Of a stretch of 64,000 nt of DNA, positions 25,759 through 48,436 are shown in pieces. The notes beneath the pieces are model-generated. The model saw only the letters and a program-made list of their open reading frames with translations, searched no databases and had not been told where the DNA came from. Source of the DNA: a virus. Taxonomy: Duplodnaviria > Heunggongvirae > Uroviricota > Caudoviricetes. Made by a program: the position numbers and the translations under genes. The stretch spans positions 1 to 64,000 of the IMG/VR virus record IMGVR_UViG_3300037258_000931. The stretch is one strand, 5' to 3'. The number at the start of each line of letters is the position of its first letter. Position 1 is the first letter of the stretch.

Positions 25759-27567
25759 ATGTCTGAATCGAGTTTCAATCCCGGCTTCGATGCTTGCTAC
25801 CGGTACTTTGCCTACCGTCTGCCGCTGGAACGGCTGACCAAGCAGGACGCACAGAATGTGCACTGTCCGTTCCACGGCGACAAACATGCATCGATGAGCC
25901 TGAACCTGGCCAAGGGGGTGTGGCACTGCCATGTGTGCGAACTGGCCGGGGGGATGCTGGACTTTGAAAAGCGGATGATGGCCTGCGATCAGGAGGCGGC
26001 CTGGGAGCAGATCTACCGCATTACGGGCCTCGAAAAGCCGAAACAGACGCGCCGGGTGATCGCCAGCTACGACTACACCGATGTGTCGGGCAAGGTGCTG
26101 TTCCAGAAGTTGAGATACGAGCCCAAGGAGTTCGCCAACCGCCAGCCGGACGGCAAGGGCGGCTGGTTTTACAACCTGCACGGGGTGAAGAAGGTTCTCT
26201 ACCGGCTGCCGGAACTGGTAACCGCCAAGCTGGTGTTTGTGGTGGAGGGCGAGAAGGACGCCGACAATCTCCGCGAGGCGCTTTTGGCTGCCGACGTAAA
26301 GCACTGCGCGACGACCTGCAACTTTGACGGCGCCGGGCACTGGAAGGCGGAGTATGCGCCCTACTTCACCGGCAAGCTGGTGGTGGTGCTGGCTGACAAC
26401 GACGCCAAGGGGCGCAGCCACCAGCAGACGGTTTGTGCCAACGTGAAGCCCTATGCGGAGAAGGTGAAGGCGGCGGAGCTGCCCGGGCTTAAAGAGAAGG
26501 ATGACGTCTCGGACTGGCTGGCGATCGCGGCCAACACGGTGAAAGCACTGCTGGCGCTGGTGAAGGCTACGCCGATCTGGGAGCCGGAGCAGACCGAGCA
26601 TGTGTTGCTGGAAGAGATGCGCGACTTTCTGGACCGGGCGCCGGTGGAGATCGAGTGGCTGGTGGAGGGACTGATACCGGCCCGGACGCGGGGCCTGATG
26701 GTGGCCGATCCCAAGGTGGGCAAGAGTCCCCTGTCGCTGGACCTGGCGCTGGCGCTGGCCTCGGGATCTTCGTTTCTGGGCCATGTGGTGCCGCTGCGCA
26801 GAAGAGTGGCGATCATCTCCCGCGAAGACTCGCCGCAGGAGACCGCCCGTAGACTGCGACTCTTCTCCGAGGGGAGCGCCGCACGCAGTGCCTACAACTG
26901 GGGGCAGATCTGGGTGAACACCATGACCCAGAGCGCGGTGCTGCATCTGGACAATCCGGAGCACCTGGAGGGGCTGATCCAGGAGCTGAAGATGGAGCAG
27001 TTCGATCTGGTGATCTTTGATGTGCTGCGCGAGATGCACACCCAGGACGAGAACGACAACACGGCGATTGCCAACACCGTGCTGGCGGCGACCAAACGGA
27101 TTCAGGTGGAGTGCCAGTGCGGGGTGCTGGTGCTGCACCACATCTCGAAGGCGCAGAGCACCAACATTTTTAGGGACGCGCGCGGGGCCGGTGCCATTCA
27201 CGGCTGGACGGAGTGGGGACTGGGCTTGACGGTGGTGGACGAGACCGCGCCGCGGCGGGAATGGGTGCGCAAGGTGACGGCGGAGTGCAAGTACGCCTGC
27301 CCGGCGGAGGATGTGTTTTTCCGCATCGTTTCAGACGACGCGGAAGGGGTCAGGGATCAGGGATCAGGGATCAGCCCGAGTGGCGGCGGCGTGCCCTGGC
27401 TGCGCATTGAGTTGACGGATGCTCCGGAGACGCCGCGCAAACGGAATTTGAGTGAGGCCAAGCAGGCGCTCTCACCCCGGGAACGAGGACCTGTTCCCGG
27501 GGACTCCGTCGCCGGCAAGGTGACTTCGATGCCGGCGCGGCACTGGTATGAGCGGGATGAGGGATAA
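25759..27567 (+). CDS. bifunctional DNA primase / helicase-like protein (zinc finger, toprim, RepA/DnaB-like P-loop)
   Basis: CPFHGDKHASM...HCHVCE zinc finger; toprim VVEGEKDADN and LADNDAKGR; P-loop MVADPKVGKS; a GGGATCAG-repeat tract is translated in frame near aa 533. Confidence 0.75.
   Translation: MSESSFNPGFDACYRYFAYRLPLERLTKQDAQNVHCPFHGDKHASMSLNLAKGVWHCHVCELAGGMLDFEKRMMACDQEAAWEQIYRITGLEKPKQTRRVIASYDYTDVSGKVLFQKLRYEPKEFANRQPDGKGGWFYNLHGVKKVLYRLPELVTAKLVFVVEGEKDADNLREALLAADVKHCATTCNFDGAGHWKAEYAPYFTGKLVVVLADNDAKGRSHQQTVCANVKPYAEKVKAAELPGLKEKDDVSDWLAIAANTVKALLALVKATPIWEPEQTEHVLLEEMRDFLDRAPVEIEWLVEGLIPARTRGLMVADPKVGKSPLSLDLALALASGSSFLGHVVPLRRRVAIISREDSPQETARRLRLFSEGSAARSAYNWGQIWVNTMTQSAVLHLDNPEHLEGLIQELKMEQFDLVIFDVLREMHTQDENDNTAIANTVLAATKRIQVECQCGVLVLHHISKAQSTNIFRDARGAGAIHGWTEWGLGLTVVDETAPRREWVRKVTAECKYACPAEDVFFRIVSDDAEGVRDQGSGISPSGGGVPWLRIELTDAPETPRKRNLSEAKQALSPRERGPVPGDSVAGKVTSMPARHWYERDEG
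27346..27374. repeat. GGGATCAG tract translated in frame inside the primase-helicase gene
   Basis: ggggtcagggatcagggatcagggatcag encodes GVRDQGSGIS. Confidence 0.8.
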
Positions 27568-27569
27568 AG

Positions 27570-27609
27570 GCAGGGATCAGGGGTCAGGGATCAGTAAAAA
27601 GCAGGGATG
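27570..27609. repeat. GGGATCAG-family solo left arm
   Basis: cagggatcaggggtcagggatcag then aaaaagcagggatgag. Confidence 0.65.
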
Positions 27610-27614
27610 AGTTT

Positions 27615-27905
27615 TTGGAGGCGAGGGTGAATAAGCCGATCTATATTGCGCGGGAGCTTGAGAGCAGCCTGGCGGAGGAGATCGATGACGAGCTTGTTCG
27701 AGCGCGCCGGCATGGCGCCGTTTTCGCCAGTCTGCATGAAGCCTACGCGGTGATCTTGGAAGAGCTGGACGAGATCTGGGAGATCGTGCGCGAGAAGCGG
27801 CGCGACCGGGATGGAGACAAGCTGCGCCGGGAGCTGGTGCAACTGGCGGCAATGGCGATCAAGGCGATTCATTCGATGGAGAACTTTACCGGCGGACAGG
27901 TCTAG
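27615..27905 (+). CDS. small helical protein, possibly MazG-like NTP pyrophosphohydrolase fold
   Basis: 96 aa; LHEAYAVILEELDEIWE resembles the EExxE motif of all-alpha NTP-PPases; weak. Confidence 0.3.
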   Translation: MEARVNKPIYIARELESSLAEEIDDELVRARRHGAVFASLHEAYAVILEELDEIWEIVREKRRDRDGDKLRRELVQLAAMAIKAIHSMENFTGGQV

Positions 27906-27935
27906 TGAGCTACCGATGCTGAATGAGGAACAGTC

Positions 27936-28415
27936 ATGCCGATCTTGAACTATTCAACCGAAGTGCCACCGGAGCGGACGATTGGGGAGATCACGTCTCT
28001 GCTGATTCGCAAGCAGGCGCGGTCTATCACCAGCGAGTTCGACGAGGGTGGCGAACTGACGGCGGTTTCGTTTGTGCTGCATGTGGGCGGCTTGCCGGTG
28101 CGGTTTCAGTTGCCGGCCAATGTGGAGGGCGTGGCGGGAGTGCTGCTGCGCGATGAGCCCTGGAACTCGCGCCGGGCGCCGCCCGGCCCGGAGGCTTACA
28201 AAGCCAAGCTGAAGGCGCGCGCCAAGTGGGTGGCGTGGCGAATTCTAAAAGATTGGGTAAGCGCCCAGATGGCGCTGATCGAGAGCGGGCAGGCCAATGT
28301 GGCGCAGGTGTTCATGCCCTACGCGCAGCACGGCAACGGGACCACGACCATGTACGAGTTATGGGTAGAGAACAACCAGCGGCAGTTGACGGCGGGGAGT
28401 TCCGATGCTGCATGA
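27936..28415 (+). CDS. hypothetical protein
   Basis: 159 aa; SD-like AGGAACAG upstream. Confidence 0.4.
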   Translation: MPILNYSTEVPPERTIGEITSLLIRKQARSITSEFDEGGELTAVSFVLHVGGLPVRFQLPANVEGVAGVLLRDEPWNSRRAPPGPEAYKAKLKARAKWVAWRILKDWVSAQMALIESGQANVAQVFMPYAQHGNGTTTMYELWVENNQRQLTAGSSDAA

Positions 28416-28641
28416 CGAGACGCACGAGAGTTTAAGCAACGAGGATGCGTGCAGCCAGATTGCGTTTCGGATTGTGGAGACCGCCGAGCAGATCGACCAA
28501 CTGCTGGTGTTGACCCTGCGCAAGGACGGAAGCGGCCGGTCGATGGACAACGGATTGACGGCGGACGAAGCGAAAAATCTGGTGATGAGTTTTCACTCCT
28601 GGGTGGACCAGAGCCTGGGCCGGGATATGGAGCGGAGCTAG
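28405..28641 (+). CDS. small hypothetical protein
   Basis: 78 aa overlapping the preceding stop. Confidence 0.35.
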   Translation: MLHDETHESLSNEDACSQIAFRIVETAEQIDQLLVLTLRKDGSGRSMDNGLTADEAKNLVMSFHSWVDQSLGRDMERS

Positions 28642-28648
28642 AAGCTGA

Positions 28649-28688
28649 GACAGAGAACAGGTTTCAGGGGTCAGTTGTCAGGGATCAG
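28649..28688. repeat. GGGATCAG-family solo left arm
   Basis: acagagaacaggtttcaggggtcagttgtcagggatcag. Confidence 0.65.
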
Positions 28689-28741
28689 AACGGATGGACA
28701 GGTAAAGGGGTCAAAGGAGAAATCGTGACGGGGGAGAAATC

Positions 28742-29593
28742 ATGACGGGACTGGTGTTGGTGGGGACGCGGCCGGAGCCTTTGGTTCCGGTGGACTTCGC
28801 AACGGCTGAAGAAGCCTTTAACCGAGCCGAGGCTGGGCAGGCAGAGGCTCAAGAAGAAACCGCTTCGCAGCCTGAGCCGGCGAATCTGGATGAGCGGCTG
28901 CGGGAGTGCGAGCAGGGCATCGACGAGGCGTGGACCGGGGTGAACCGGCTTTCCATGCAGATGGGCTGGGACGGGAACTTTATCAAGCGGCATGAGGGCT
29001 GGGCGCGGCTGGGGTACGAAGACGAGAAGGACTTTCGGGCCAAGAAACATATTGCCCGCTCGACCTGGTACAAGATGGTCGGCCTGGCGGAGCGGTTCCC
29101 GGATCTGACCCGGGCGCAGTTCTGTTCCATGCTGATCGAGAATGCGGTGAAGTTGGCGGAGGCGCCGCGCGAGGTGCGCCACGATCTGAAGCTGGTGGCG
29201 GCGGCGGCGGCCAGCAGCGAGCGCGAGTTTGAAGGCGAGCTGGTGCTGGAGCAGTCGGCCCGGGAGCAGAAGCCGGTGGGCGAGGTGTACGTGACCATGA
29301 AGTGGCGCATCAAGCAGGCCCAGCGCGAGGTGATTCAGCGCGGTCTTGAAGACTGGCAGCGGGAGCACGGCATCGACGACGAAGGCTATGCGCTGGAGCT
29401 GTTGATCGCCGAGTACCGGGAGCGGCCGACGCTGGTGGGATTCATGACCGAATCGATCAGCCGGCTTTCGCGGGAACTGACTCGGGCGCAGACCGCGGAG
29501 GATCTGGAGGAGCTGCGCAAGGGGATGGCGCAACACATTTTGGATATGGCCGAGATTTTGAAGATCTGCTGCGGGGAGGAACGAGCGGCGTAG
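28742..29593 (+). CDS. hypothetical protein
   Basis: 283 aa, Glu/Ala-rich helical; the opposite-strand 283-aa ORF is Arg/Leu/His-rich and rejected. Confidence 0.4.
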   Translation: MTGLVLVGTRPEPLVPVDFATAEEAFNRAEAGQAEAQEETASQPEPANLDERLRECEQGIDEAWTGVNRLSMQMGWDGNFIKRHEGWARLGYEDEKDFRAKKHIARSTWYKMVGLAERFPDLTRAQFCSMLIENAVKLAEAPREVRHDLKLVAAAAASSEREFEGELVLEQSAREQKPVGEVYVTMKWRIKQAQREVIQRGLEDWQREHGIDDEGYALELLIAEYRERPTLVGFMTESISRLSRELTRAQTAEDLEELRKGMAQHILDMAEILKICCGEERAA

Positions 29594-29599
29594 CGGCTT

Positions 29600-29700
29600 G
29601 TTTCAGGGGTCAGGTGTCAGTTGTCAGGGATCAGGGGTCAGTTAAAAGCAAGAACGAAGGCAGGCCCCTTCGGCTTCGTTCAGGATGACAGGTTGCTCGG
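29600..29700. repeat. GGGATCAG-family element, left arm plus short core, no right arm
   Basis: Left arm x5, core ttaaaagcaagaacgaaggcaggccccttcggcttcgttcaggatgacagg. Confidence 0.7.
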
Positions 29701-29701
29701 G

Positions 29702-29911
29702 ATGGCAAAGCAGAGGAGAAAGACGATGCGGGAGTTCAAGATTACCCCGGAGCGGGGCGAGTTGCAGACGGTGAAGGGCCACGAGCTGGTGGTGGATGAG
29801 GCCGGTTCTCAGGTCTACGTGGAGATTCAGGATGAAGACGAAGAGACCTTGTTCCTGATCCCGCTGGCCAATTTGAAATACGTGACGGCGCGGGAAGTTC
29901 AGGATCACTGA
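29702..29911 (+). CDS. small hypothetical protein
   Basis: 69 aa, ATG at 29702 right after a core-only repeat element. Confidence 0.35.
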   Translation: MAKQRRKTMREFKITPERGELQTVKGHELVVDEAGSQVYVEIQDEDEETLFLIPLANLKYVTAREVQDH

Positions 29912-30112
29912 GAAAGTGCTGTCTGGGCGGGTTGAGATCTGTGGTCTCCCGCACCCGGGTGCGTGTAGAAAGCTGATTTTTCTTTTCCTGCTCTGCATTT
30001 CTTTTCGCTGGAAGAGAACGGTACTGGGCGCTGCCGGCGGCCGGGTATCGCAGGAGCGGGGAAGCTCTGGGAGTTCTCGACTGAGTGGGAAAGAGCTCCC
30101 GGATTTTTTTAA

Positions 30113-30293
30113 CAGGGAACAGAGATCAGGGGTCAGGGGTCAGGGGTCAGGGGTCAGTTAGAAGCAAGAGCAAGAGCAACGGCAACCGCGGGTCCTTCGA
30201 CTTCGGTCGCTCTGCTCCCTTCGCTCAGGATGACAGTCGAGGTAAGGATGACAGGTTTTTTCTGATCCCTGATCCCTGACAACTGTTCTCTGA
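30113..30293. repeat. GGGATCAG-family element, full
   Basis: Canonical; immediately upstream of the flotillin-like gene. Confidence 0.85.
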
Positions 30294-30321
30294 AACCGGT
30301 CCCAACTGAAAGGAGCGAACC

Positions 30322-32352
30322 ATGACAACCGAGGTTTTATTGCATTACGCGTGGGTGATTCCGGTGGCGCTGGTGGTGGTGTTTCACAAGCTGGCGCTGC
30401 GGCTGTGCCTGGGCATGGTGATCATCAACCAGGACCAGGTGGGGATTGTGAACAAGAAGTGGGTGTTGCTGGGCAAGAACCGCACTCTGCCCGACGGCGC
30501 GATTGTGGCCATGAACGGCGAGGCCGGAATACAGGCCGACACGCTGGCGCCGGGCAGCCATTTTGGATTGTGGCCGTGGCAGTATGCGGTCAGCCGAGTT
30601 CCGTTTGTGACCATCGAGCGGAACAAGATCGGGCTGGTGCAGTCGCTCGACGGCCGTCCGCTGAAGAACGGCCGGGTGCTGGCCAAGACGGTGGACTCGA
30701 ACTCCTACCAGAACGCGCGCCAGTTTTTAACCAACGGCGGCGAGCGCGGGCCGCAGATCGGAATTATTCCGCCGGGAACCTATCGCATCAATACGCAGCT
30801 CTTTCAGGTGACGGCCGCCGACGTGCTGGACGTGGCGGACAACTCGGTAGGCATTGTGACCACCCGGGAAGGGGCGGCGCTGCCGGCCGGAGAGATCGCA
30901 GGCAAGAAGGTGGCGGGGCATAACGGCTTTCAGGACGGCGAAGCCTTTCTGGCTGCGGGGGGACAGAAGGGGCTGCAGGAGCAGGTGATTCTGGCCGGCC
31001 GGTACTTCATCAATCCCAGATTCGCATCGGTGGAAGTGAAGCCGATGACCGAGGTGCCGATCGCCAGCGTGGGGGTGGTGATTGCCTACGTGGGCGAGGA
31101 GGGCGTGGACCAGAGCGGAGACGGCTTCCAGCACGGCAACCTGGTGATGAAGGGCCAGAAAGGGGTATGGGTGAATCCTCTGGACCCGGGGCGGTATCCG
31201 ATCAACACCTATACCCACAAGGTGGAAGTGGTGCCGACCGCCAACATTGTGCTGAATTGGGCCAGCGGCAAGAGCGAGGCGCACCATCTGGACGAGCGGC
31301 TATCGACCATCACGGTGCGCTCCTCGGACGGGTTCACCTTCAACCTGGACGTGAGCCAGATTATTCACGTGCCCAGCAACGACGCGCCCAAAGTGATTGC
31401 CCGTTTTGGGACCATGGCCAACCTGGTAACTCAGGTGCTGGAGCCGACCATCGGCAACTACTTCCGCAACGCCGCCCAGGACTCCGACGTAATCGAGTTT
31501 TTGAAGGGCCGCACGGAGCGCCAGAAGCAGGCCAAGGAGGCCATTCAGGCGGAACTGGTGAAGTGCAATGTGAACGCGGTGGACACGCTGATCGGAGACA
31601 TTGTTCCGCCGGCGGATCTGATGAAGACCCTGACCGACCGCAAGATTGCCGAGCAGGAGCAGGTGACGTACAAGACTCAGGAGCTGGCCGAGAACACCCG
31701 CAAGGAGCTGCAGCAGGCCAAGGCCATGGCCGACACCCAGGCGACGGTGGTGGCCAGCGAGCGGCAGGTATCGATTGCCGAGTTCCAGGCCCAGGCGGCG
31801 GTGAAGAAGGCTGAAGGCGAGGCCCGGGCCAGCGTACAGAATGCCGATGGCGCCGCGCAGTCCAATGTGCTGAAGGCGGACGGTGAGGCCAAGGCGTCGA
31901 TTCGCAAGGCGGAGGGCGAGCGGCAGGCGCAGATCAACCTGGCCGAGGGGCAGAGACAGGCGCGCATCAACCTGGCCGAAGGCGAGGCGCGGGCCAACGT
32001 GGTGATGGCCGAAGCCGATGCCGAAGCCGCGGTGAAGAGCGCCACCGGGCAGGCCGAGGCCAAGAAGCTGAACGGCGAGGCCGACGCCAACGTGGTCATC
32101 ACGGTGGGCAAGGCGGAGGCCGACAAGACACTGGCCGTAGGCGAGGCGGAGGCGGCGGTGATCAAGAAGAAGATCGAGTCAATGGAAGCGGGCAACTATG
32201 CGGCCATCCAGGTGGCGCGGGAGCTGGCCACCAATCACACCAAGATGGTTCCGGACATCATGGTGGGCTCCGGCGCCGACTCCAACAACGGGCTGATGAA
32301 TGTGCTGCTGGCGCGGCTGGTGCAGTCGCCCAACGGAGTGGCGAAACCTTAA
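30322..32352 (+). CDS. flotillin/SPFH (band-7)-like membrane protein
   Basis: 676 aa; N-terminal transmembrane segment, central domain, and a long C-terminal coiled coil of AEGEA/KAEGE repeats as in bacterial flotillins (YqiK-like). Confidence 0.55.
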   Translation: MTTEVLLHYAWVIPVALVVVFHKLALRLCLGMVIINQDQVGIVNKKWVLLGKNRTLPDGAIVAMNGEAGIQADTLAPGSHFGLWPWQYAVSRVPFVTIERNKIGLVQSLDGRPLKNGRVLAKTVDSNSYQNARQFLTNGGERGPQIGIIPPGTYRINTQLFQVTAADVLDVADNSVGIVTTREGAALPAGEIAGKKVAGHNGFQDGEAFLAAGGQKGLQEQVILAGRYFINPRFASVEVKPMTEVPIASVGVVIAYVGEEGVDQSGDGFQHGNLVMKGQKGVWVNPLDPGRYPINTYTHKVEVVPTANIVLNWASGKSEAHHLDERLSTITVRSSDGFTFNLDVSQIIHVPSNDAPKVIARFGTMANLVTQVLEPTIGNYFRNAAQDSDVIEFLKGRTERQKQAKEAIQAELVKCNVNAVDTLIGDIVPPADLMKTLTDRKIAEQEQVTYKTQELAENTRKELQQAKAMADTQATVVASERQVSIAEFQAQAAVKKAEGEARASVQNADGAAQSNVLKADGEAKASIRKAEGERQAQINLAEGQRQARINLAEGEARANVVMAEADAEAAVKSATGQAEAKKLNGEADANVVITVGKAEADKTLAVGEAEAAVIKKKIESMEAGNYAAIQVARELATNHTKMVPDIMVGSGADSNNGLMNVLLARLVQSPNGVAKP

Positions 32353-32386
32353 CTTGCGATTCAACCAAATCTGAAACGAGGAATTC

Positions 32387-33646: not shown

Positions 33647-33770
33647 CAGAGAGCAGGGATCAGGGGTCAGGGGTCAGTTAGAAGCAAGTGCAAGTGCAGG
33701 TGCTTCGGCTCCGCTGCGGCGGCCGGGTTTTTACTGATCCCTGACCCCTGATCTCTGATCCCTGATCTCT
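33647..33770. repeat. GGGATCAG-family element, full (short core variant)
   Basis: Core ttagaagcaagtgcaagtgcaggtgcttcggctccgctgcggcggccgggttttta; separates HNH and GIY-YIG genes. Confidence 0.8.
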
Positions 33771-33782
33771 GAATACTGGCAA

Positions 33783-34336: not shown

Positions 34337-34609
34337 ATGGCGGTAAAGACGGCGTATACCTGCGATGTGTGCGGGGCGGAGCGGAAGGAAGCCAACCACT
34401 GGTTTGTGGCGTGCCAGACCCACGCGGGGCTGGACTTTCACACCTGGGGCTGGGCGTTGCGCGAGGAAATGTTGAACGAAGAGCGGTTGATGCACCTGTG
34501 CGGGCGATTGTGCGCGCACAAGAAGCTGGACCAGTTTTTGGCCAGCGTGAGTTTTACGACGACAGAGACAGAGACAGAGATCAGGGGTCAGGGGTCAGGG
34601 GTCAGTTAG
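34337..34609 (+). CDS. small zinc-ribbon protein; C-terminal residues encoded by a repeat arm
   Basis: CDVCG...CGRLC; ORF runs into the GGGATCAG tract. Confidence 0.35.
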   Translation: MAVKTAYTCDVCGAERKEANHWFVACQTHAGLDFHTWGWALREEMLNEERLMHLCGRLCAHKKLDQFLASVSFTTTETETEIRGQGSGVS

Positions 34610-34750
34610 AAGCAAGAGCAAAAGCAAGAGCAAGAGCAACCGCAGGTCCTTCGGCTCCGGTCGCTTTGCTCGCTTCGCTCAGGATGACAGGTTTTTGCTG
34701 ATCGCTGATCCCTGACCCCTGACCACTGTCTCTGAGTTCTGACCACTGTT
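34563..34750. repeat. GGGATCAG-family element, full
   Basis: Left arm is the coding tail of ORF 34337-34609; canonical core; right arm. Confidence 0.85.
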
Positions 34751-34765
34751 TTGAAGGAGAGAGAG

Positions 34766-35293: not shown

Positions 35294-35450
35294 GAACAGG
35301 GATCAGGGATCAGGGGTCAGGGATCAGTTAGAAGCAAAAGCAAGAGCAAGAGCAGCCGCGGGTCCTTCGACTCCCTGCGGTCGCTCAGGATGACAGGTTT
35401 TTTTCTGATCCCTGATCCCTGATCCCTGACAACTGATCTCCGACCCCTGC
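35294..35450. repeat. GGGATCAG-family element, full
   Basis: Canonical. Confidence 0.85.
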
Positions 35451-36059: not shown

Positions 36060-36063
36060 AGGC

Positions 36064-36285
36064 AGGGAACAGGGATCAGTTGTCAGGGGTCAGGGATCAG
36101 TTAAGGGCAAAAGCAAAAGCAAGTGCAACCGCGGGTTCTTCGACTTCGGTCGCTTTGCTCCCTTCGCTCAGAATGACAACCGATTTAGGTGCTCAGGATG
36201 ACAGGGGTTTTGTTTTTTCTGATCCCTGATCTCTGAAACCTGACCCCTGACCCCTGATCCCTGTTGCCCTGATCTCTGAAACGAA
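36064..36285. repeat. GGGATCAG-family element, full
   Basis: Core with duplicated gctcag(g/a)atgaca boxes; upstream of the AAA ATPase gene. Confidence 0.85.
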
Positions 36286-37274: not shown

Positions 37275-37490
37275 CAGAGATCAGGGGTCAGTTGTCAGGG
37301 GTCAGGGATCAGTTAGAAGCAAGTGCAAAAGCAAAAGCAAGAGCAACCGCAGGTGCTTCGACTTCGGTCGCTTTGCTCCCTTCGCTCAGGATGACAGCTC
37401 TGGGGCGGGTCGCTCAGGATGACAGGCTTTTGCTTTTCCCTGACCCCTGATCCCTGATCTCTGACCCCTGATCCCTGATCCGGTTCGTAC
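37275..37490. repeat. GGGATCAG-family element, full
   Basis: Core variant with gctctggggcgggtcgctcaggatgacagg. Confidence 0.85.
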
Positions 37491-39730: not shown

Positions 39731-40075
39731 ATGAAGCGTAATCTGGTGGATCTTTACGATGTGCTGTTCGACCAGTTGGAGAGTTTGAAGACGGTGAGCT
39801 ACACCGGGCTGGAGGCGACGATCAAGCGGTCCGAGTCGATTCGCAGGACCGCGCAGACGATTATCGATGCCGGCAAGTTGGAGGTAGCGATCCACAAGGC
39901 TCGGGGCAAAAACGGAGCGGTGGATGGGCTGCTGACGGAAAAGCAGTTGGCGGAAACCAGTGATCAGGGGTCGGGGAACAGGGATCAGGGTTCAGCGATC
40001 AGGGATCAGTCAAGTGCAAGTGCAAAAGCAAAGGCAACCGCGGGTCCTTCGGCTCCCTCCGGTCGCTCAGGATGA
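39731..40075 (+). CDS. hypothetical protein, C-terminal tail encoded by a repeat arm
   Basis: about 75 aa of ordinary sequence then SDQGSGNRDQGSAIRDQ translated from the GGGATCAG tract. Confidence 0.4.
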   Translation: MKRNLVDLYDVLFDQLESLKTVSYTGLEATIKRSESIRRTAQTIIDAGKLEVAIHKARGKNGAVDGLLTEKQLAETSDQGSGNRDQGSAIRDQSSASAKAKATAGPSAPSGRSG

Positions 40076-40207
40076 CAGCTCTGGGGTGGGTCGCTCAGGA
40101 TGACGGCGGGTTGAGATTTGTGGTCTCCCACCCATCCACGATGGAGCTGTGGATGGATGGGGCACCCAGAGGTTTGTTTTTGACTGATCCCTGATCCCTG
40201 ATCCCTG
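39960..40207. repeat. GGGATCAG-family element, full, with extended core
   Basis: Core includes GGCGGGTTGAGATTTGTGGTCTCCCACCCATCC...GGATGGATGGGGCACCCAGAGGTTTGTTTTTGAC; flanks the serine recombinase gene. Confidence 0.85.
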
Positions 40208-40210
40208 CCT

Positions 40211-40843
40211 TCACGACGCCATGGCCTTGCGGGGGATCTCTCTCTGGACCGTCCTTTTTTCTTTTGCCTTAAAGAAACGTACTATGACCGATTTAGAGGC
40301 GCTACAGGCGACGGCGATCTGGGCATACGACTTTCCCTCAGTGCGCAGGCGCAGAGCTTTGTTTTCGTTCCATTGCGCGCGCGGCCGGCCGGGGGGCGGC
40401 CCTCCTTCCATGCGTTGCAGGTTCATGGCGGCTTTGGTTCGCTGCGAGATGTGGTTATGCTGGCGGCGCGCCATGCGGGTGAGGGCCAGGTGCAGAGACT
40501 CGGTGAGCAGCTTGTAGGAGTCAACCCAGGGTTCCTCATAAGAGCGGAAGCCAATGCCTTGACAAGCAAGATCGCACAGCAGGGGATAGACTGCCTGGGG
40601 ACCTTCGACCGAAAGCCTTTTCACCTCCCAGAACAGCAACAGATCGAAACGGCGCGCCATAGCATCGGAGCGCACGCGCTCCAGCGCCGGGCGGCGATCG
40701 TTTTTGGCCGAGGCGCGGTCGCGGTAGATCTGGGTAATCTGCCAGCCTTCAGCCGGCGCGGCCTGCTGGATGGCGGCAAGCTGATCTTCCATGACCCGAT
40801 CGCCGGCGCGCTTGGAGACGTTGAGATAGACGGCGACCCGCAT
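40211..40843 (-). CDS. serine recombinase (resolvase/invertase family)
   Basis: N-terminal MRVAVYLNVSKRAGD...GWQI..IYRD...RP.L with catalytic Ser, C-terminal helix-turn-helix; lone leftward gene in a rightward block. Confidence 0.7.
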   Translation of the reverse strand: MRVAVYLNVSKRAGDRVMEDQLAAIQQAAPAEGWQITQIYRDRASAKNDRRPALERVRSDAMARRFDLLLFWEVKRLSVEGPQAVYPLLCDLACQGIGFRSYEEPWVDSYKLLTESLHLALTRMARRQHNHISQRTKAAMNLQRMEGGPPPGRPRAQWNENKALRLRTEGKSYAQIAVACSASKSVIVRFFKAKEKRTVQREIPRKAMAS

Positions 40844-42128: not shown

Positions 42129-42131
42129 GCG

Positions 42132-43241: not shown

Positions 43242-43605
43242 GATCTTTTGTTTTGGCAGCAATCTGCGTGGAATTCACGGGAAAGGCTCGGCGCTCTATG
43301 CGCGCATGCATTACGGGGCCAAGATGGGCGTAGGCGAAGGCCGCTGCGGGCAAGCTTACGCGATCCCCACCAAGACCACTCCCTGGGAGCGGCGCGAGAT
43401 TGGCGCGATCGCCGCCAGCGTAAACCGGTTTTTGAGTTATGCGCGCCGCCATCCGGAGCTGCGCTTCAAGGTAGTGCGGATCGGCTGCATGAACGCCGGC
43501 TTCAGCGATGACCAGATGGCGCCCTTGTTTGAGGGAGCGCCGGAGAACTGTTTTTTCGATCCTTTATGGGAGCGCTTTGGATTGAAGTGCTGGGAGAATG
43601 GGTGA
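43231..43605 (+). CDS. hypothetical protein
   Basis: 124 aa; FGSNLRGIHGKGSALYA motif; no family assigned. Confidence 0.4.
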   Translation: MDDEIFCFGSNLRGIHGKGSALYARMHYGAKMGVGEGRCGQAYAIPTKTTPWERREIGAIAASVNRFLSYARRHPELRFKVVRIGCMNAGFSDDQMAPLFEGAPENCFFDPLWERFGLKCWENG

Positions 43606-43639
43606 TGGCCGGCAACGCGGCCGGAAACGGGGCTGAGGC

Positions 43640-44284
43640 ATGAAGATCGTGGCGCTGTCTGACACCCACGGCCAGCATCGCATGGTTTCGGTCCCGGACG
43701 GCGACATCCTTATTTTCTCCGGGGATATGACCATGGGCGGGGAACCATGGGCACTCAACGATTTCAGCGAATGGCTGGCGGCCCTGCCGCACGAACACAA
43801 GCTATGGACCTACGGCAATCACGAGTGGACCTGCGATCCGCGTAACGCGCACTACGTGCCTGGCTTCGATTGCATTGTGCAAAGCGGCCGCCGGCTGGGC
43901 GATCACCAGAGCGGAACCCTGGTGAAGGTGAACGGATTGCGCATCTGGGGTTCTCCCGTGCATCCGCGCTTCCATGGTTGGGCTTTCGGCCGCGAGAAAG
44001 GCTCCGACATTCGCCGCTATTGGGAACAGATTCCCCTTGACGCCGACGTGGTGGTAACCCATGGGCCGCCCCAGGGGATTCTGGACGCCAATGGCGCCGG
44101 GGAGCAATGTGGCTGTCCGGCGCTGCGGGACAGGCTGAGTGCGGTTCGGCCGGCCGTGCACATTTTCGGTCATATCCATACCCGCTACGGTGTGGAACAG
44201 AGAGGTGCGACGCGCTTTGTAAACGCGGCGCTGCTGGATGACAAGTACGAGCTGGTTCGAGAGCCGATTGTGCTGGAGGTCTGA
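43640..44284 (+). CDS. metallophosphoesterase (calcineurin-like)
   Basis: Motifs LSDTHG, GDMTMGG, GNHE, VVTHGPP, GHIH in canonical order. Confidence 0.8.
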   Translation: MKIVALSDTHGQHRMVSVPDGDILIFSGDMTMGGEPWALNDFSEWLAALPHEHKLWTYGNHEWTCDPRNAHYVPGFDCIVQSGRRLGDHQSGTLVKVNGLRIWGSPVHPRFHGWAFGREKGSDIRRYWEQIPLDADVVVTHGPPQGILDANGAGEQCGCPALRDRLSAVRPAVHIFGHIHTRYGVEQRGATRFVNAALLDDKYELVREPIVLEV

Positions 44285-44289
44285 GATCC

Positions 44290-44745
44290 ATGATCATCAA
44301 GATTGGCGAAGTGGAGTGGCACGATCTGCAGCGGCAGTTCACTTTTGCGCGGCCGGGCAGATGCGCACACGCACGGCTGCAATATATCGACCACGGGGAG
44401 CTGCTGAAGTGCCTGGACTGCAACGACCAGGTATCGGCGGTGTGGGCGCTCAAACATTTCTTTACTCAATACCAGCGTGAACAGGAGCGGTTGGATGGGG
44501 TCCGGGCCGGAATCAAAAAAGACGAGACTCGCTTAGTGATCCACCGGGCCGCGCTGGCGGTGCAGGACGCATGGCGAAAGCGGACGCTGGTGCCGACCTG
44601 TCCCCATTGCCACCAGGGGATTTTGCCGATGGACGGTTTTGGCAGGACGGGCGGAGTGAGCCGGGAGTATTACAAGACCGCGCCGCTGCGGCTCAAGCGG
44701 GTGATCGAACTGACGATACCGTTGAAGGACGAGAGCGGGGAATGA
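44290..44745 (+). CDS. hypothetical Cys/His-containing protein
   Basis: 151 aa; LKCLDCN...CPHCHQG. Confidence 0.4.
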   Translation: MIIKIGEVEWHDLQRQFTFARPGRCAHARLQYIDHGELLKCLDCNDQVSAVWALKHFFTQYQREQERLDGVRAGIKKDETRLVIHRAALAVQDAWRKRTLVPTCPHCHQGILPMDGFGRTGGVSREYYKTAPLRLKRVIELTIPLKDESGE

Positions 44746-44813
44746 GGCGGTCCGAATTCTGGCTCGCTGGGCGGTTCCGAAGCGCGGGTGATGGCTCGGT
44801 TGGAAGGGAGTAT

Positions 44814-44895
44814 TCCCTCAGGGGCTAATGCCCAACTTGTTTCCGGCTCTTTACGGCACGGCTGAAGCCGTGCCCTTTCAAAGCACGGGCAAATT
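44814..44895. repeat. CCTCAGGGGCTAA-type hairpin-cluster element, copy 2
   Basis: CCCTCAGGGGCTAATGCCC...CACGGCTGAAGCCGTGCCCTTTCAAAGCACGGGC. Confidence 0.5.
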
Positions 44896-45006
44896 AGGAC
44901 ACTGCTGACGCGCGCAATTTTTGACTTGGAGGCACCCGCAGCCTGTATGCTGCTGGTGACGTCTCGAAGCCGGATAGAAAGGCGCGGGCGCGGAGGAGAA
45001 AGCACG

Positions 45007-45498
45007 ATGCCAAGAAAAGCGACGACTAAAGGGAATCCGAAGACTGAGGGGAAATCAAAGAAAACTGCGAACGTTACCGAAGCGGAGAAAAAACTGATTT
45101 GTCCGGAGTGCGGCGCCGGGCCGTATCAAGACAAGCGTGGCTGGGCTACGCATCGCTTCAACGTGCATAAGATCCACGGAACATCGGCCTCGACAATCGC
45201 TTACCACAGAAAGCAGGACCGGGCCCGGCTGGCGGGGCTGGCAGGGAAGGATGTTGCGCCTGCGGCGCCTGAGCGTAAACCGCGAGCATCCGCTCCGGCC
45301 CGTGCCGCGGCTTCAGACGGGACGGCGGCCTACGATGTTCCAGCGAGCCTGGTGGGGTACACCGCGGCCAAGTTCGAGCTGGCCCTGCATGCAATAGCGA
45401 TCGAGCACTCGCTGCCGAAGCAGCAGTTTGTCCAGGCGGTGGCGTTCTACCTCTCCGCGATATCAAGGGAACAGAAGAGCTCTGAAGAGCAGAACTAG
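45007..45498 (+). CDS. hypothetical zinc-ribbon protein
   Basis: ATG at 45007; 163 aa; CPECG...HRFNVH. Confidence 0.4.
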   Translation: MPRKATTKGNPKTEGKSKKTANVTEAEKKLICPECGAGPYQDKRGWATHRFNVHKIHGTSASTIAYHRKQDRARLAGLAGKDVAPAAPERKPRASAPARAAASDGTAAYDVPASLVGYTAAKFELALHAIAIEHSLPKQQFVQAVAFYLSAISREQKSSEEQN

Positions 45499-45507
45499 GG
45501 CGTTGCG

Positions 45508-45753
45508 ATGGTTGATTCTTTTCATCCTCCTTCTGAGGTGCTCTCATTGTGGGTGGTCTACGCGCATCCGCTGGACTACCCACAGAACTTTGTGCTGCGG
45601 CGCTGGGAGTTGCGCGATAGGGTGTTACTGCCCACCAACGAGGTGTCGCTGGGAATGACTTTCGAAGAGATTCGCGCCGCGCTGCCGCCGGGGCTGTATT
45701 GGCTGCCCCGTTTCGCAGGCGACGATCCGTGTATTGTGGAGGTGTGGCTGTGA
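45508..45753 (+). CDS. small hypothetical protein
   Basis: 81 aa. Confidence 0.3.
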   Translation: MVDSFHPPSEVLSLWVVYAHPLDYPQNFVLRRWELRDRVLLPTNEVSLGMTFEEIRAALPPGLYWLPRFAGDDPCIVEVWL

Positions 45754-46001
45754 GCGACGATCGGCTGCAGGACCTTGAACTCTACGCCTGGGTGGGCGAA
45801 GATGAGTTCGGCAGCGGCGCGGTTGGGTTGAAGCAAGGCGTGGTGCCCGCTGGGACCATTCCCATGGTGGCCATCGAGCGGGAGAAGCTGGACCGGTACT
45901 GGGCAAACGCGGAGCGGCAAGCCGCGGCCTTTGGCAAGCGAATCTCGCTGGTGCGATTCAGGGCGGTAGAAGTGGTGAGGCGGACGGCTGCGGGGGACTA
46001 A
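45750..46001 (+). CDS. small hypothetical protein whose stop codon abuts the mini CRISPR array
   Basis: GTG overlapping the upstream stop (GTGA); 83 aa; TAA at 45999-46001. Confidence 0.3.
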   Translation: MSDDRLQDLELYAWVGEDEFGSGAVGLKQGVVPAGTIPMVAIEREKLDRYWANAERQAAAFGKRISLVRFRAVEVVRRTAAGD

Positions 46002-46163
46002 GTGCACTGGGCAAGTGCAACTCAACGGAGGCAGGTTTGCCCTCTTCGGCAAGCGTTGCAACGAAGACAAAGTGCGCTGGAGAAGTGCAACAGTTCATGG
46101 TGATATGAATTGCGGGCGAAGGCGGGGTTGCAACCAGCTCCGAGCGCACTACGCGCGTGCAAT
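46000..46163 (+). CRISPR. mini CRISPR array (3 repeats / 2 spacers) of the same repeat family, first and last repeats degenerate
   Basis: AAGTGCACTGGGCAAGTGCAAC (46000-46021), GTTGCAACGAAGACAAAGTGCGCTGGAGAAGTGCAAC (46055-46091), GTTGCAACCAGCTCCGAGCGCACTACGCGCGTGCAAT (46127-46163); spacers 31 and 34 nt. Confidence 0.55.
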
Positions 46164-46188
46164 GCAATTGATTGGAGAGCGGGGCGAT

Positions 46189-46665
46189 ATGCCGAACCGA
46201 TGGACCAAAACCGCTTCGAGGCTGATGACCGGCCGGGTAGCGCTGAGCCATGAAATTATGATTACGGTGTGGCCGTTTTTTCTGGGCGCGCTGTGCGCCT
46301 GGGACGTGGAGAGACATCTCTGGGTGATGGTGGCACTGAATGGCGCGCTGAGCGTGGTGCTGGCGGCGGCGGCGGTTTATTTGCACCGCGCGCGCCGGCT
46401 GGCGCTGGAGGTTGTGATGCACGTGCGGGAGGCGACGGAACAGCGGGCGCTGGCCGCGGAGGCGGAGCGGGGAAGATTGCGCCAGGTGGCGCTCTCGGCC
46501 CTGGCTTTGAAGCTGACGATCGAGCACGGATTTCCCCCCAATCTCGATGCGCTGACCCGGGACCTGGCCGCAGTGGTTGAAGTGCAGAGCGTGACAGTGA
46601 CTCGGGCCCCTGCCGGGCAGCCTGAAACCGGCTGGACCAAAACGGACCGGTCCAAAATAAACTAG
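46189..46665 (+). CDS. hypothetical membrane protein
   Basis: 158 aa from ATG 46189 (the ORF track N-terminal extension runs through the mini-array); two hydrophobic helices. Confidence 0.4.
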   Translation: MPNRWTKTASRLMTGRVALSHEIMITVWPFFLGALCAWDVERHLWVMVALNGALSVVLAAAAVYLHRARRLALEVVMHVREATEQRALAAEAERGRLRQVALSALALKLTIEHGFPPNLDALTRDLAAVVEVQSVTVTRAPAGQPETGWTKTDRSKIN

Positions 46666-46677
46666 AATGGCTGGACG

Positions 46678-46870
46678 GAGAACAGGGATCAGAGGTCAGA
46701 GATCAGGGGTCAGGGGTCAGTTAAGAGCAAAAGCAAAAGCAAAGGCAACCGCAGGTCCTTCGACTTCGGTCGCTTTGCTCCCTGCGCTCAGGATGACAGT
46801 CGAGGTAAAGGTGACAGGTTTTTTCTGACCCCTGATCTCTGATCCCTGAAAACTGACCCCTGACCCCTGT
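46678..46870. repeat. GGGATCAG-family element, full
   Basis: Canonical; immediately upstream of ssb. Confidence 0.85.
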
Positions 46871-46886
46871 TGTCTGAAGGAGAACC

Positions 46887-47390
46887 ATGGCCAAGAGCAT
46901 GAACAAAGCGATTCTGCTGGGCAACGTGGGCAAGGACCCCGAGATCCGCACCCTGAGCAACGGTACCAAGATAGCCACCCTGGCGCTGGCCACCAGCGAG
47001 CGCATCAAGGACAAGCAGGGCAACTGGGAGGACCGGACCGAATGGCACACGTTGGTGGCTTTTGCGCGGCTGGCCGAGGTGATCGAACAGTACGTGCGCA
47101 AGGGCAGCAAGCTGTGTATCGAGGGCCGGATCGCGACCCGGAGCTGGGACGACAAACAGTCGGGCGAGAAAAAATATGCGACCGAGATCAAGATCGACGA
47201 TCTGGTGCTTTGCGATGCCAGGGGTCAGAGATCAGAGGTCAGGGTTCAGGGATCAGGGATCAGAGATCAGGGATCAGTTGTCGGGGATCAGGGCCGCTCG
47301 GGTCAGCCCGCAGGTCAACTCGCGGGGGGGCGCGGGGGCAGCGTGGTGGATGAGCGCGACCCGACCGACGACTGGGCCGATTTCCGGTAA
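46887..47390 (+). CDS. ssb: single-stranded DNA-binding protein
   Basis: N-terminal OB fold MNKAILLGNVGKDPEIRTLSNG...WHTLVAFARLAE...ATRSW...KYATEIKIDD; linker contains an in-frame GGGATCAG tract; acidic tip DDWADF. Confidence 0.8.
   Translation: MAKSMNKAILLGNVGKDPEIRTLSNGTKIATLALATSERIKDKQGNWEDRTEWHTLVAFARLAEVIEQYVRKGSKLCIEGRIATRSWDDKQSGEKKYATEIKIDDLVLCDARGQRSEVRVQGSGIRDQGSVVGDQGRSGQPAGQLAGGRGGSVVDERDPTDDWADFR
47220..47292. repeat. GGGATCAG tract translated in frame inside ssb (linker region)
   Basis: About nine tandem units encoding RGQRSEVRVQGSGIRDQGSVVGDQG. Confidence 0.8.
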
Positions 47391-47402
47391 GGAGAGCGAA
47401 AG

Positions 47403-47627
47403 ATGCAAACGGGCGTCGATTATCCGACCGAAGAAGAACTGGCTGCGTGGCCAAACTGCGCAACGCCGGACTGCCCGCACAAATGCTGTCGCATCATGGA
47501 TTCGATCTACTGCTCGCCGTGCAATATGCACATGCGCCGTCTGACCCGAGACCAATGGAGCGCGCTGATCGCCCAACGGCGGAAGGAACTTTTTGGTGAG
47601 GAGCCATGCCGGCCGGCAGAGTCGTAG
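47403..47627 (+). CDS. small Cys-rich protein
   Basis: 74 aa; CATPDCPHKCC...CSPCNMH. Confidence 0.35.
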   Translation: MQTGVDYPTEEELAAWPNCATPDCPHKCCRIMDSIYCSPCNMHMRRLTRDQWSALIAQRRKELFGEEPCRPAES

Positions 47628-47737
47628 ACGGACATCTGACAACTGAAAATTAAAAAGAAACTGGACCGGCAGTCCAGCTTCTGGACCATCTTTGCGCGGC
47701 TGCGCCCACCGGGGCGGCCGGGACCTGGTGCGGAGCT

Positions 47738-48436
47738 ATGACTGACCGGATGGTGGCGGGACGTATTTCGAAGCGGGCTGAGGCGAAAGACATCCGCCCC
47801 TTTTTGGACAGGATCGCGCTGTACCGGCGGGAGCTGGCCGGCAAGCCCTGCCGGCGGGTGGCGCGGGGCGAGGATCTGAGCGGGCTGCTGGCGGAGCTGG
47901 AGCGGGTGGGCCGGGGGCTCGACGGAGTGGGCATTGCCGCGCCGCAGATCGGGGTGTTTCTGCAGGTGGCGCTGCTGTTTCCAGAGATCAGGGACCAGTT
48001 GTCAGGGATCAGGGGTCAGCGATCAGGGGTCAGGAAGGGCAGGAAGGGAGCGGTCCAGCCGTCATCCGTGGTGCTGGTGAATCCGGAGATTGAGAACCTG
48101 CGCGGGAAAGACATTCTGGAGTACGAGGGATGCTTGAGCCTGCCGCCTTTCCCGGGATGCGAGTCGCACCTGCAAGCATCCAGGCGCATGGCGGAGGCGC
48201 GGGTGTGGCGCAGCGAGGTGATCGAGATCCGCAGCGGCACGGTGGACGATCCCGCGGCCGGACTGAAGCACACCTTCCGCGGCTACCTGGCGCGGATTGT
48301 GCAGCACGAGATGGATCACCTCAAGGGAGTGTTCTTTATCGACCACTGCGGGCCGATCGGCCGGGAGCAGGTGTTAAAGCGGTTTGGGGAGTATTTGAAA
48401 GCCAGGGATCAGTTGTCAGGGGTCAGGGGTCAGTGA
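47738..48436 (+). CDS. def: peptide deformylase with an in-frame repeat insertion
   Basis: Motifs GIAAPQIGV (GxGxAAxQ), EGCLSLP, HEMDHL in order; about 16 aa translated from a GGGATCAG tract between motif 1 and the beta region; C-terminus also runs into a repeat arm. Confidence 0.65.
   Translation: MTDRMVAGRISKRAEAKDIRPFLDRIALYRRELAGKPCRRVARGEDLSGLLAELERVGRGLDGVGIAAPQIGVFLQVALLFPEIRDQLSGIRGQRSGVRKGRKGAVQPSSVVLVNPEIENLRGKDILEYEGCLSLPPFPGCESHLQASRRMAEARVWRSEVIEIRSGTVDDPAAGLKHTFRGYLARIVQHEMDHLKGVFFIDHCGPIGREQVLKRFGEYLKARDQLSGVRGQ
47983..48035. repeat. GGGATCAG tract translated in frame inside def
   Basis: gagatcagggaccagttgtcagggatcaggggtcagcgatcaggggtcagg encodes EIRDQLSGIRGQRSGVR. Confidence 0.8.
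48403..48434. repeat. GGGATCAG tract forming the C-terminal codons of def
   Basis: cagggatcagttgtcaggggtcaggggtcagtga. Confidence 0.75.

Follow-up and report, generated by a model that had tools for sequence, protein, structure and literature searches.

How can a short tandem repeat lie within conserved phage genes, in frame, and leave those genes intact? The question is raised by a stretch of 64,000 nucleotides (nt) from a Caudoviricetes virus (IMG/VR record IMGVR_UViG_3300037258_000931, positions 1 to 64,000; referred to as the window). Repeat tracts in the window are read as protein within the genes for a primase-helicase, an SSB and a peptide deformylase (def), and as the C-terminal ends of def and three further open reading frames (ORFs). 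The tracts belong to a 7-nt repeat family which is native to the chromosomes of Acidobacteriaceae, the family of the predicted host. The phage genome has probably been colonised by this family, with selection acting as a filter on the copies inside genes. On this account, preservation of the reading frame reflects survivorship; it is not a property of the repeat.

The repeat unit

Tandem Repeats Finder (TRF) gives a period of 7 at every array, with the consensus TCAGGGA or its complement CTGATCC; no array has a period of 8. The initial annotation described an 8-nt unit with a coding period of 24 nt, or eight amino acids (aa), which is wrong. Three units make 21 nt and encode seven aa; thus GGG ATC AGG GAT CAG GGA TCA is read as GIRDQGS. 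The encoded heptapeptide follows the pattern G-I/V-R-D/G-Q-G-S and is hydrophilic and of low complexity. Because 7 is coprime with 3, the same repeat peptide is read in every frame. For such a unit, an "in frame" insertion is simply one whose total length is a multiple of 3.

One property was missed in the initial annotation: one orientation of the repeat is free of stop codons and the other contains TGA, in all frames. As computed for eight unit types, the G-rich strand has zero stop codons in all three frames and gives the same heptapeptide in each. On the C-rich strand (computed for the major units), TGA occurs in each frame within every 21 nt.

Arrays were detected by a phase-locked scan for CAG or CTG recurring each 7 nt, applied to the whole window. 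There are 32 forward arrays (G-rich on the + strand) and 20 reverse arrays (the C-rich complement), with 3-10 units each and a mode of 5. The tracts reported in the initial annotation are present where it placed them, and they are far beyond chance: arrays of at least four units number 32 forward and 17 reverse, versus 0 in 50 first-order Markov simulations of the window. The main types among the ~190 forward units are TCAGGGA (43), TCAGGGG (37), TCAGAGA (17), TCAGTTA (17) and TCAGTTG (11). TCAGTTA is nearly always the single terminal unit of a G-rich arm. A specific order of unit variants, ..TTG-GGGx-GGGx-TTA, recurs between distant arrays, including both tracts in def. This recurrence argues for copying of arrays rather than independent expansion.

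Insertions within conserved genes

The primase-helicase gene (25759..27567, + strand) encodes a protein of 602 aa with Pfam Zn_ribbon_DnaG and AAA_25 domains. It contains a 54-nt in-frame insertion, GVRDQGSGISPSGGGVPW, at 27346..27399 (+), with the heptamer array at 27345-27374. The homologue in L022, a metagenomic relative on a 129-kb contig (53% G+C, zero heptamer arrays), is 72% identical over 556 aa; the alignment has a single clean 18-aa gap, exactly at GVRDQGSGISPSGGGVPW.

The ssb gene (46887..47390, +; 167 aa) is identified by Pfam SSB at residues 5-106 and by alignments to homologues and to structures in the Protein Data Bank (PDB). Its array (47219..47293, +) has 10.7 units by TRF, or 25 codons (75 nt). 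It begins directly past the OB fold (..CDARG), at the start of the disordered linker. A syntenic relative with a tail of 16 aa shares 65% identity in the OB fold. Other SSBs of the phage clade have tails of 25-35 aa ending in (D/E)W(D)xFR; their linkers are ~22-25 aa shorter than that of the window SSB, and they share the same C-terminal tip (DxxW..FR). The tail of the window SSB has 54 aa and still ends in DDWADFR; the frame is thus restored past the tract. The top SSB match, P0209, was considered as a tract variant and rejected, as it is a tandem SSB.

The deformylase gene (47738..48436, +; 232 aa) is identified by Pfam Pep_deformylase at residues 26-206 and by PDB alignments. All catalytic motifs (GVGIAAPQ, EGCLS and QHEMDH) are intact. 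A loop insertion of ~25 aa lies between motif 1 and motif 2 at 47981..48058 (+); it consists of an array at 47982-48037 and then two copies of CAGGAAGGG at 48031-48048. PDB deformylases align on either side of residues ~82-108, not across them, and at the position of EIRDQLSGIRGQRSGVRKGRKGAVQP in the window protein, 17 clade members (39-51% identity) have a loop of 4-6 residues. Two relatives carry unrelated insertions in the same loop, so the site is permissive. The insert is predicted to be disordered: in an AlphaFold model built from the clade alignment, pLDDT is below 50 at residues 85-106, between two well-predicted strands, and block means are 86-96 over most of the core. Compared with most clade members, def also has a second, non-heptamer insertion, FPGCESHLQASRRM, at 48149-48190 (residues ~138-151), right past EGCLSLP; two relatives carry other insertions at that site.

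C-terminal tails derived from the repeat

Four proteins end in repeat-derived sequence. In def, a solitary G-rich array (48403..48436, +) encodes the tail ARDQLSGVRGQ, which replaces the tail of its relatives. This array matches the full canonical G-rich arm; the stop codon TGA comes from its last unit, TCAGTGA, and the next gene starts inside the array at 48433. The tail of ORF 34337-34609 (34561..34609, +) is made of a (GACAGA)n repeat and a G-rich arm; the TAG in the terminal TCAGTTAG unit closes it. Its homologue in L022 is 57% identical over aa 1-72 and ends earlier, with an unrelated tail. The C-terminal ~38 aa of ORF 39731-40075 (39958..40075, +) come from a G-rich arm, (RGCAA)n and the core sequence described below, with the stop codon TGA inside the conserved GGATGAC; a homologue in the related phage L019 aligns to aa 1-84 only and ends there. 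The fourth case is a serine recombinase encoded on the minus strand at 52171-52890. Its C-terminal ~22 aa (52171..52239, -) are read from a C-rich arm, on the other strand, and from a reverse-complemented core end. Three homologues (60-70% identity) end 8-13 aa past KILxR, and the window protein runs on as GPEIRDQGSEIREKQKPVILSA to its stop codon.

All ORFs with tracts stay open. In the primase-helicase, def and ssb, homology resumes past the tract without a change of frame, and none of the in-gene tracts shifts a frame or divides a gene. ORFs flanking solitary arrays were considered as split genes; this reading was rejected, as they are separate genes in the tract-free L022 too. The initial annotation's claim that the tracts preserve frame therefore holds. 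Its C-terminal tails are all confirmed; homologues of the serine recombinase and of ORFs 34337 and 39731 end before the element-encoded residues. The alignments that it proposed for def, ssb and the primase-helicase confirm the insertion boundaries and the frame, and the inserted residues are not common to the homologues. Its suggestion that the repeat is tolerated at flexible sites fits the def model.

Location and orientation of the arrays

Most arrays are intergenic, and copies within genes are a minority. If any two adjacent canonical units are counted, the window has 51 array segments. Eight of these, from seven loci in a total of six genes, are genic, and every one of the eight reads in the sense, stop-free direction. 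For the seven in-gene tracts this has p = 0.008 under random orientation. Genic arrays are strongly depleted, with 7-8 of the 51 segments in genes when 74% of the window is coding (binomial 4e-19). Antisense overlaps between arrays and genes do not exceed 8 nt; they occur at 3' ends, where the array gives the stop codon.

Between genes, the arrays keep close to coding boundaries. G-rich arms start 1-17 nt (mostly 3-4 nt) past the upstream stop codon, and C-rich arms finish 0-32 nt ahead of the next start codon; tRNA genes are abutted likewise.

A composite palindromic element

Fifteen pairs of G-rich and C-rich arrays form palindromic elements of 136-233 bp with one shared architecture: a G-rich array, RGCAA hexamers, a conserved core, a T-run and a C-rich array. 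The G-rich array terminates in TCAGTTAG or TCAGTTAA, and three to six RGCAA hexamers follow. The core runs from CCGCGGGTCCTTCGRCT to CGCTCAGGATGACAG and contains one to three copies of the GCTCAGGATGACAG module. Cores align nearly base for base; these are non-repetitive, near-identical sequences of 50-120 nt, joined to 15 arrays. A 15-nt core motif occurs 26 times in the window, versus 0.16 times expected, and always on the + strand. The 15 complete elements make up 4.4% of the window and fill the spacers from stop to start codon. A search of the whole window against Rfam at the gathering threshold, and of 33.6-37.5 kb at E<=1, found only tRNAs and chance miRNA hairpin matches on the arms.

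The family in related phages and host chromosomes

Relatives of the phage mostly lack the repeat. The array scan was applied to 87 def-bearing loci from metagenomic relatives and IMG/VR viral contigs; 83 of them have no arrays and only the window is array-dense (0.64 arrays per kb). The syntenic loci L016, L020 and L022 have zero arrays, and L017 has a single array (in two copies of the same locus); one other scanned locus has an unrelated A-rich match only. The pattern of core plus arm has 0 matches in IMG/VR, and a blastn search of 6.6 kb against GenBank phages returned only a 69-nt primase match. In a related 124-kb phage, L019 (contig Ga0643848_0000037), there is a different heptamer family (CAGTTCT, CAGCTAT, CAGCGAT), and the C-terminal tail of its deformylase (QLPVVSSQPQSQGS..) may also derive from a repeat.

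The same pattern of core plus arm is found at 14 loci in a genome collection, 13 of them in metagenome-assembled genomes (MAGs) of Acidobacteriota (Terracidiphilus, Acidobacteriaceae, Terriglobia). These host loci have the same heptamer units and core, frequently as a core with a single arm. In these core copies the base of the stem, TCCTTCGAC...GTCGCTCAGGA, is conserved and the hairpin that it encloses is variable. Since the arrays are absent in related phages and present in host chromosomes, the family is a host trait that this phage lineage has acquired. Among named SSBs, the nearest belong to Terracidiphilus, Acidobacteriaceae and Pseudacidobacterium, and sequence comparison points to a Terracidiphilus-like Acidobacteriaceae bacterium as the phage host.

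Host genes carry the repeat in frame as well. In uvrC of two Acidobacteriaceae MAGs (L001, minus strand, ~820-1010; L009, 1820-2140), an array and a reverse-complemented core are inserted in frame. The insert peptides are DRDQGSEIRDQ...PVILSE.. and DRDQGSGVRGQG...PVILSD.., and both ORFs are open. The insert splits the Pfam UvrC_RNaseH match into two pieces, which lie around it, and the Pfam domains flanking it are intact. The two inserts have ~43 and ~84 aa; the proteins are 80% identical overall and almost identical outside the repeat-derived segments, which hold most of the differences. Both uvrC genes also hold a second repeat-like peptide, LKGHDFSRAEN..ALAPE, which looks like a different palindromic Acidobacterial repeat. 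At L007 (~5050-5400), from a host MAG, an ORF for a 607-aa PMT_2-like membrane protein is open through an array and core (EQGTGNSEQGTGGRDQGSGEKPANSNHCHPERN); this may be one gene or two.

The encoded peptide is also found outside these genomes. A 49-aa tract peptide was compared with 5.8 billion proteins and gave 87 matches (P0121-P0207), all of 34-86 aa and without a Pfam domain. Named sources are MAGs of Candidatus Accumulibacter, Tenacibaculum and Candidatus Viridilinea. Short ORFs of the GIRDQGS type indicate that heptamer arrays exist outside Acidobacteria; these ORFs are probably mis-called genes.

Origin of the in-gene tracts

The most probable explanation is that host-native 7-nt arrays (TCAGGGA / TCAGGGG / TCAGAGA / TCAGTTG) have colonised the phage genome, either alone or as the inverted arms of an element which carries a conserved REP-like hairpin core between them. 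Spread would be by duplication of arms and elements, probably through a host function acting in trans, or by recombination. The number of units would then be modulated, probably by slippage or recombination. Selection would purge most copies that fall in genes; survivors would be those in the stop-free orientation, of net 3n length and in a structurally permissive place. Such places would include the surface loop of def, the disordered linker of SSB, the C-terminal region of the primase-helicase and four extreme C-termini. The inserts would be neutral passengers rather than adaptations.

The initial annotation's reading of an in-frame repeat tolerated within genes is supported. It also called the repeat mobile or expandable. 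The recurring variant order, the absence in related phages and the differing uvrC inserts favour this part; for the phage itself, mobility and expansion are what we infer rather than observe. Tract length polymorphism, which it proposed to look for, is found in the host uvrC inserts; the phage gave no variants.

Several points weigh against this account. Neither a transposase nor a target-site duplication or other sign of mobility was identified (Pfam scan of the window; element boundaries are ambiguous, as array ends vary in length). No RAYT-type transposase turned up in the window, and no search aimed at RAYT was made. No pair of empty and filled sites was found in the same phage, and the comparisons are with homologues of 40-72% identity. 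The sole second assembly of the phage tracts (L015) is 100% identical over 3 kb, maybe from the same sample, and shows no length variant. Part of the inserted sequence is not heptameric: in the primase-helicase, 29-30 nt of the insert are heptamers and the other 24-25 nt are not, and in def a 9-nt repeat trails the array. The inserts are therefore not simply a number of units. The matches to the tract peptide are only short ORFs without domains, so long tracts in recognisable proteins are not obviously common. Finally, the + DNA strand is the G-rich one in the solitary arrays, including those within the block of minus-strand genes, a bias for which a selection filter gives no explanation. This orientation, kept in spite of the reversed genes, points to an asymmetry at the DNA level, related to replication, rather than to an RNA signal. 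All 26 core copies are likewise on the + strand, and the window has positive GC skew over its full length, 52000-60000 included. The strand bias of cores and solitary arrays, together with the positive skew, suggests replication-strand asymmetry.

A bolder form of the account is that the family is an active, undescribed, non-autonomous mobile element of Acidobacteriaceae with frame-agnostic coding arms, which colonises temperate phages while they reside in the host and repeatedly remodels essential proteins such as def, SSB, primase and UvrC. This is possible, if unlikely.

Pure microsatellites, each grown in situ by slippage from a chance seed and without any copying of arms or elements, are an improbable source of the tracts. 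Heptanucleotide simple sequence repeats are reported as the commonest class of long repeats of this type in many bacteria, with slippage as the proposed mechanism (Mrazek 2007, as cited in PMC4679880), and the range of 3 to 10 units would suit such a process. So would the way in which arrays reach exactly to coding and tRNA boundaries, as if growth had halted there. However, slippage should homogenise an array, and here mixed variants occur in a recurring order, with a common terminal TCAGTTA(G/A) unit at distant loci. Slippage does not account for fifteen arrays joined to a near-identical core of 50-120 nt, nor for a family which is absent in syntenic relatives and present in host chromosomes.

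It is still less probable that the arrays are functional nucleic-acid signals (CsrA-like sites, RNase III or terminator hairpins, or G-quadruplexes) and that the in-gene copies are kept for that function. The arrays do have fixed positions relative to stop and start codons, and the hairpin potential of the composite elements is strong; the RNA fold of the element at 37275..37481 (+) is one long hairpin (-107 kcal/mol, z = -6.6). CAGGGAU resembles the core of the CsrA motif, and base-pairing is conceivable between an in-gene G-rich tract and the C-rich arm that precedes ssb. G-quadruplex (G4) formation has been shown for GGGNATC heptamers, which have the same positional bias (Rehm 2015, PMC4692102), and binding of S1, Csp or CsrA has been proposed for TAACTGA repeats (MacGregor 2015, PMC4679880). 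However, canonical G4 motifs are not enriched on the + strand of the window (9 observed versus 8.9 expected), and the modal array has 5 units, not 4. Complementarity is not higher between cognate than between non-cognate arms (0.860 versus 0.859). The solitary arrays keep one DNA-strand orientation despite reversed transcription, so that mRNAs carry opposite sequences. The Pfam search of the window found no CsrA, RNase III or comparable protein, and there is no match to an Rfam family. Simple scans of four elements for sigma-70 promoters and intrinsic terminators gave nothing above shuffled sequences.

Contingency loci, in which gain or loss of a 7-nt unit would shift the frame and switch a gene or its tail on or off, have a very small probability. 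Each unit gained or lost does change the frame, the tract itself stays translatable, and uvrC inserts differ in length at the same site in two host MAGs. Both uvrC variants are nevertheless in frame. The genes concerned have core replication and translation functions rather than surface or host-range functions, and imperfect arrays of mixed units slip poorly. The sequences compared gave zero tract-length variants: the def and SSB protein clusters have one member each, and L015 is identical.

An assembly artefact, in which repeat-driven mis-joins placed the tracts in genes, is extremely improbable: the short-read contig L015 does start and end inside arrays, which indicates that assemblers break at them, but homologous protein flanks every tract with the frame unchanged, gene order agrees with relatives, an independent Logan assembly gives identical def tracts, and the same phenomenon is seen in unrelated MAG assemblies.

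Comparison with known repeat systems

REP and BIME sequences of proteobacteria are intergenic, highly repeated and hairpin-forming, and the STRR sequences of heterocystous cyanobacteria are tandem heptanucleotides. The host-derived family shares these features, and in its host core copies the stem base is conserved and the apical hairpin varies; the sequences of both groups are unrelated to it. To our knowledge, in-frame coding insertions have not been described for REPs.

The closest parallel for the in-gene copies is with Rickettsia palindromic elements (RPEs), palindromic repeats which lie in frame inside conserved genes (Ogata et al. 2000, as summarised in the review PMC10969869). Like RPEs and the intragenic MITE, ERIC and BOX repeats, the elements are short (~100-250 bp), multi-copy, palindromic and non-autonomous. 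Like RPEs, they occur between genes and also in frame in unrelated conserved genes, adding a peptide and leaving the protein intact; here, arms are found in def, ssb, primase and resolvase, and an arm with core in host uvrC. The traits of the RPE/MITE class seen here are thus inverted ends, a multi-copy palindrome and in-frame insertion in intact, unrelated genes. In place of fixed terminal inverted repeats, the family described here has arms made of tandem 7-nt arrays, and these vary in length. The inserts in def, ssb and the primase-helicase are each one arm without a core. Other differences are a phage as carrier and Acidobacteriaceae as the bacterial lineage, and kinship in sequence is not expected.

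Two heptamer families are also similar. The G-rich GGGNATC heptamers of Xanthomonas and Nostoc are enriched in intergenic DNA and form many inverted pairs (Rehm et al. 2015, PMC4692102). Their G-rich strand lies up to 50 bp after a stop codon, or their C-rich strand up to 50 bp upstream of an ORF (PMC4692102). The family described here likewise has head-to-tail G-rich 7-nt units, convergent inverted pairs and depletion in coding regions. However, its units are GGGATCA, GGGGTCA, AGATCAG and TTGTCAG, and no rotation gives GGG-N-ATC. There is no preference for four units (the mode is 5) and no excess of canonical G4 motifs, and the pairs enclose a conserved core.

The TAACTGA repeats of Beggiatoaceae, Cyanobacteria and Bacteroidetes (MacGregor 2015, PMC4679880) are the reverse complement of TCAGTTA. 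They occur in the stop orientation just upstream of start codons, with overlaps of a few nt at gene ends, and occasionally in the open orientation in ORFs, mostly at the protein periphery (PMC4679880). Both families have stops in all frames in one orientation and an open, frame-independent heptapeptide in the other, and in both the in-gene copies are in the open orientation. TCAGTTA makes up only 17 of ~190 forward units here, with TCAGGGA, TCAGGGG and TCAGAGA dominant. The peptide is hydrophilic and is not LSVISYQ, the arrays form inverted pairs around a core, and the insertion in def is inside the catalytic domain, not just at the periphery.

A literature search with the core and array sequences found primers only, and one for heptanucleotide repeats with Acidobacteria found nothing. 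The repeat is an undescribed family of Acidobacteriaceae and a phage which combines known features; it is not a new kind of system.

Elements and arrays along the window

The complete composite elements, all on the + strand, lie between 3550 and 55701. Three are associated with the tRNA genes: the G-rich arm of one (3550..3708) begins 14 nt past a tRNA-Pro gene, a second (5850..6023) follows tRNA-Lys, and a third (6537..6755) lies between a tRNA-Lys which ends at 6530 and a tRNA-Arg which starts at 6756. The element at 25544..25745 is upstream of the primase-helicase. It is followed by elements at 30113..30296, at 33647..33782 (a short core variant, with an extent that matches the stop-to-start spacer exactly) and at 34575..34752, where the G-rich arm is the tail of ORF 34337. 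Next are those at 35297..35439, 36063..36267 and 37275..37481, and one at 39979..40211 between convergent genes. The element at 46683..46880 is just upstream of ssb, with 6 nt between its C-rich arm and the ATG. Further elements are at 50209..50420, at 52016..52239 (three core modules, between convergent genes) and at 55543..55701, within the block of minus-strand genes, where it abuts the dnaN stop codon.

Besides complete elements, the + strand has some twelve solitary G-rich arrays and a few incomplete elements. A core with a C-rich arm is found at 1..113, where the element is truncated by the window start, and at 460..540, without a G-rich arm; 29604..29695 is a G-rich array with a degenerate core and no C-rich arm. 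Solitary arrays at 24845..24900 and 27571..27598 each start 3 nt past a stop codon, the latter being that of the primase-helicase. Those at 11392..11454 and 51128..51183 fill intergenic spacers; the second has a stop codon 4 nt upstream and a start codon 6 nt downstream. Another is at 28651..28692. Among minus-strand genes, the array at 54088..54143 is antisense to them and shares 1 nt with the 3' end of a gene whose call is weak. Arrays at 54695..54743 and 59164..59205 provide the stop codons of the minus-strand ORFs 54736-55506 and 59198-59491, each with an overlap of 8 nt. The remaining two are at 57045..57114, the longest in the window (10 units), and at 58568..58623.

Other features of the phage

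The window is the early/replication region of a ~133-kb phage of soil Acidobacteria; identical def and SSB proteins are encoded on a 132,674-bp JGI metagenome contig. Relatives of def are found on contigs of 84-140 kb with the same order of ssb, def, lysozyme and resolvase, and also in IMG/VR viral contigs. The window has ~60% G+C, with positive GC skew throughout. Genes were mapped with a codon-usage model, in which calls at 53-59 kb are weak; they lie on the + strand to ~52 kb and on the - strand beyond. There are 18 tRNA genes (+ strand, 196-9757), and repeat elements abut their ends exactly.

Pfam domains in the window include ERF, PD-(D/E)XK, tyrosine integrase, primase-helicase, SPFH, GIY-YIG, HNH and AAA, as well as two serine recombinases, SLOG, metallophosphatase, SSB, deformylase and DnaN. 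The presence of a tyrosine integrase indicates that the phage is probably temperate. This integrase is at 22046-23263 and the serine recombinases are at 40211-40843(-) and 52171-52890(-); in the relatives L017 and L020, IS1595-type transposases are nearby. The gene for a 676-aa SPFH/Band 7 protein contains a 33-nt tandem repeat (2.4 copies, 31908-31986), which encodes an AEGE(A/R)..N(L/V) segment.

A CRISPR-like array at 15744-16935 has 17 copies of a ~37-nt repeat, GTCGCAACGGGGnCCAAGTGCACTGnGTAAGTGCAAC, with a start-to-start spacing of 70-74 nt. Directly upstream is an ORF of 745 aa (13450-15687, +). Its C-terminus has a Cas12f1-like TNB domain, and its closest solved relatives are Cas12m proteins (E = 4e-9). 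Judged by these similarities, 13450-16935 looks like a phage-encoded compact type V CRISPR-Cas locus.

Significance of the repeat family

Repeat DNA is present in frame in three core replication and translation genes of a phage, with boundaries set by homologues, and in def it lies inside the catalytic domain. It is tied to a host chromosomal family which does likewise in uvrC. A simple rule for the survival of inserts follows from a 7-nt unit which lacks stop codons on one strand and is saturated with them on the other. There are also practical consequences. Short "hypothetical proteins" that consist of GIRDQGS repeats are unlikely to be genes, caution applies to gene ends near arrays, and contigs break at heptamer arrays. 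The repeat can be used as a host-assignment marker for phages of uncultured Acidobacteria. If the family is indeed an active mobile element, it would be a general generator of new linkers and C-termini, and the phage might use the intergenic copies as RNA-processing or termination hairpins between its genes and tRNAs.

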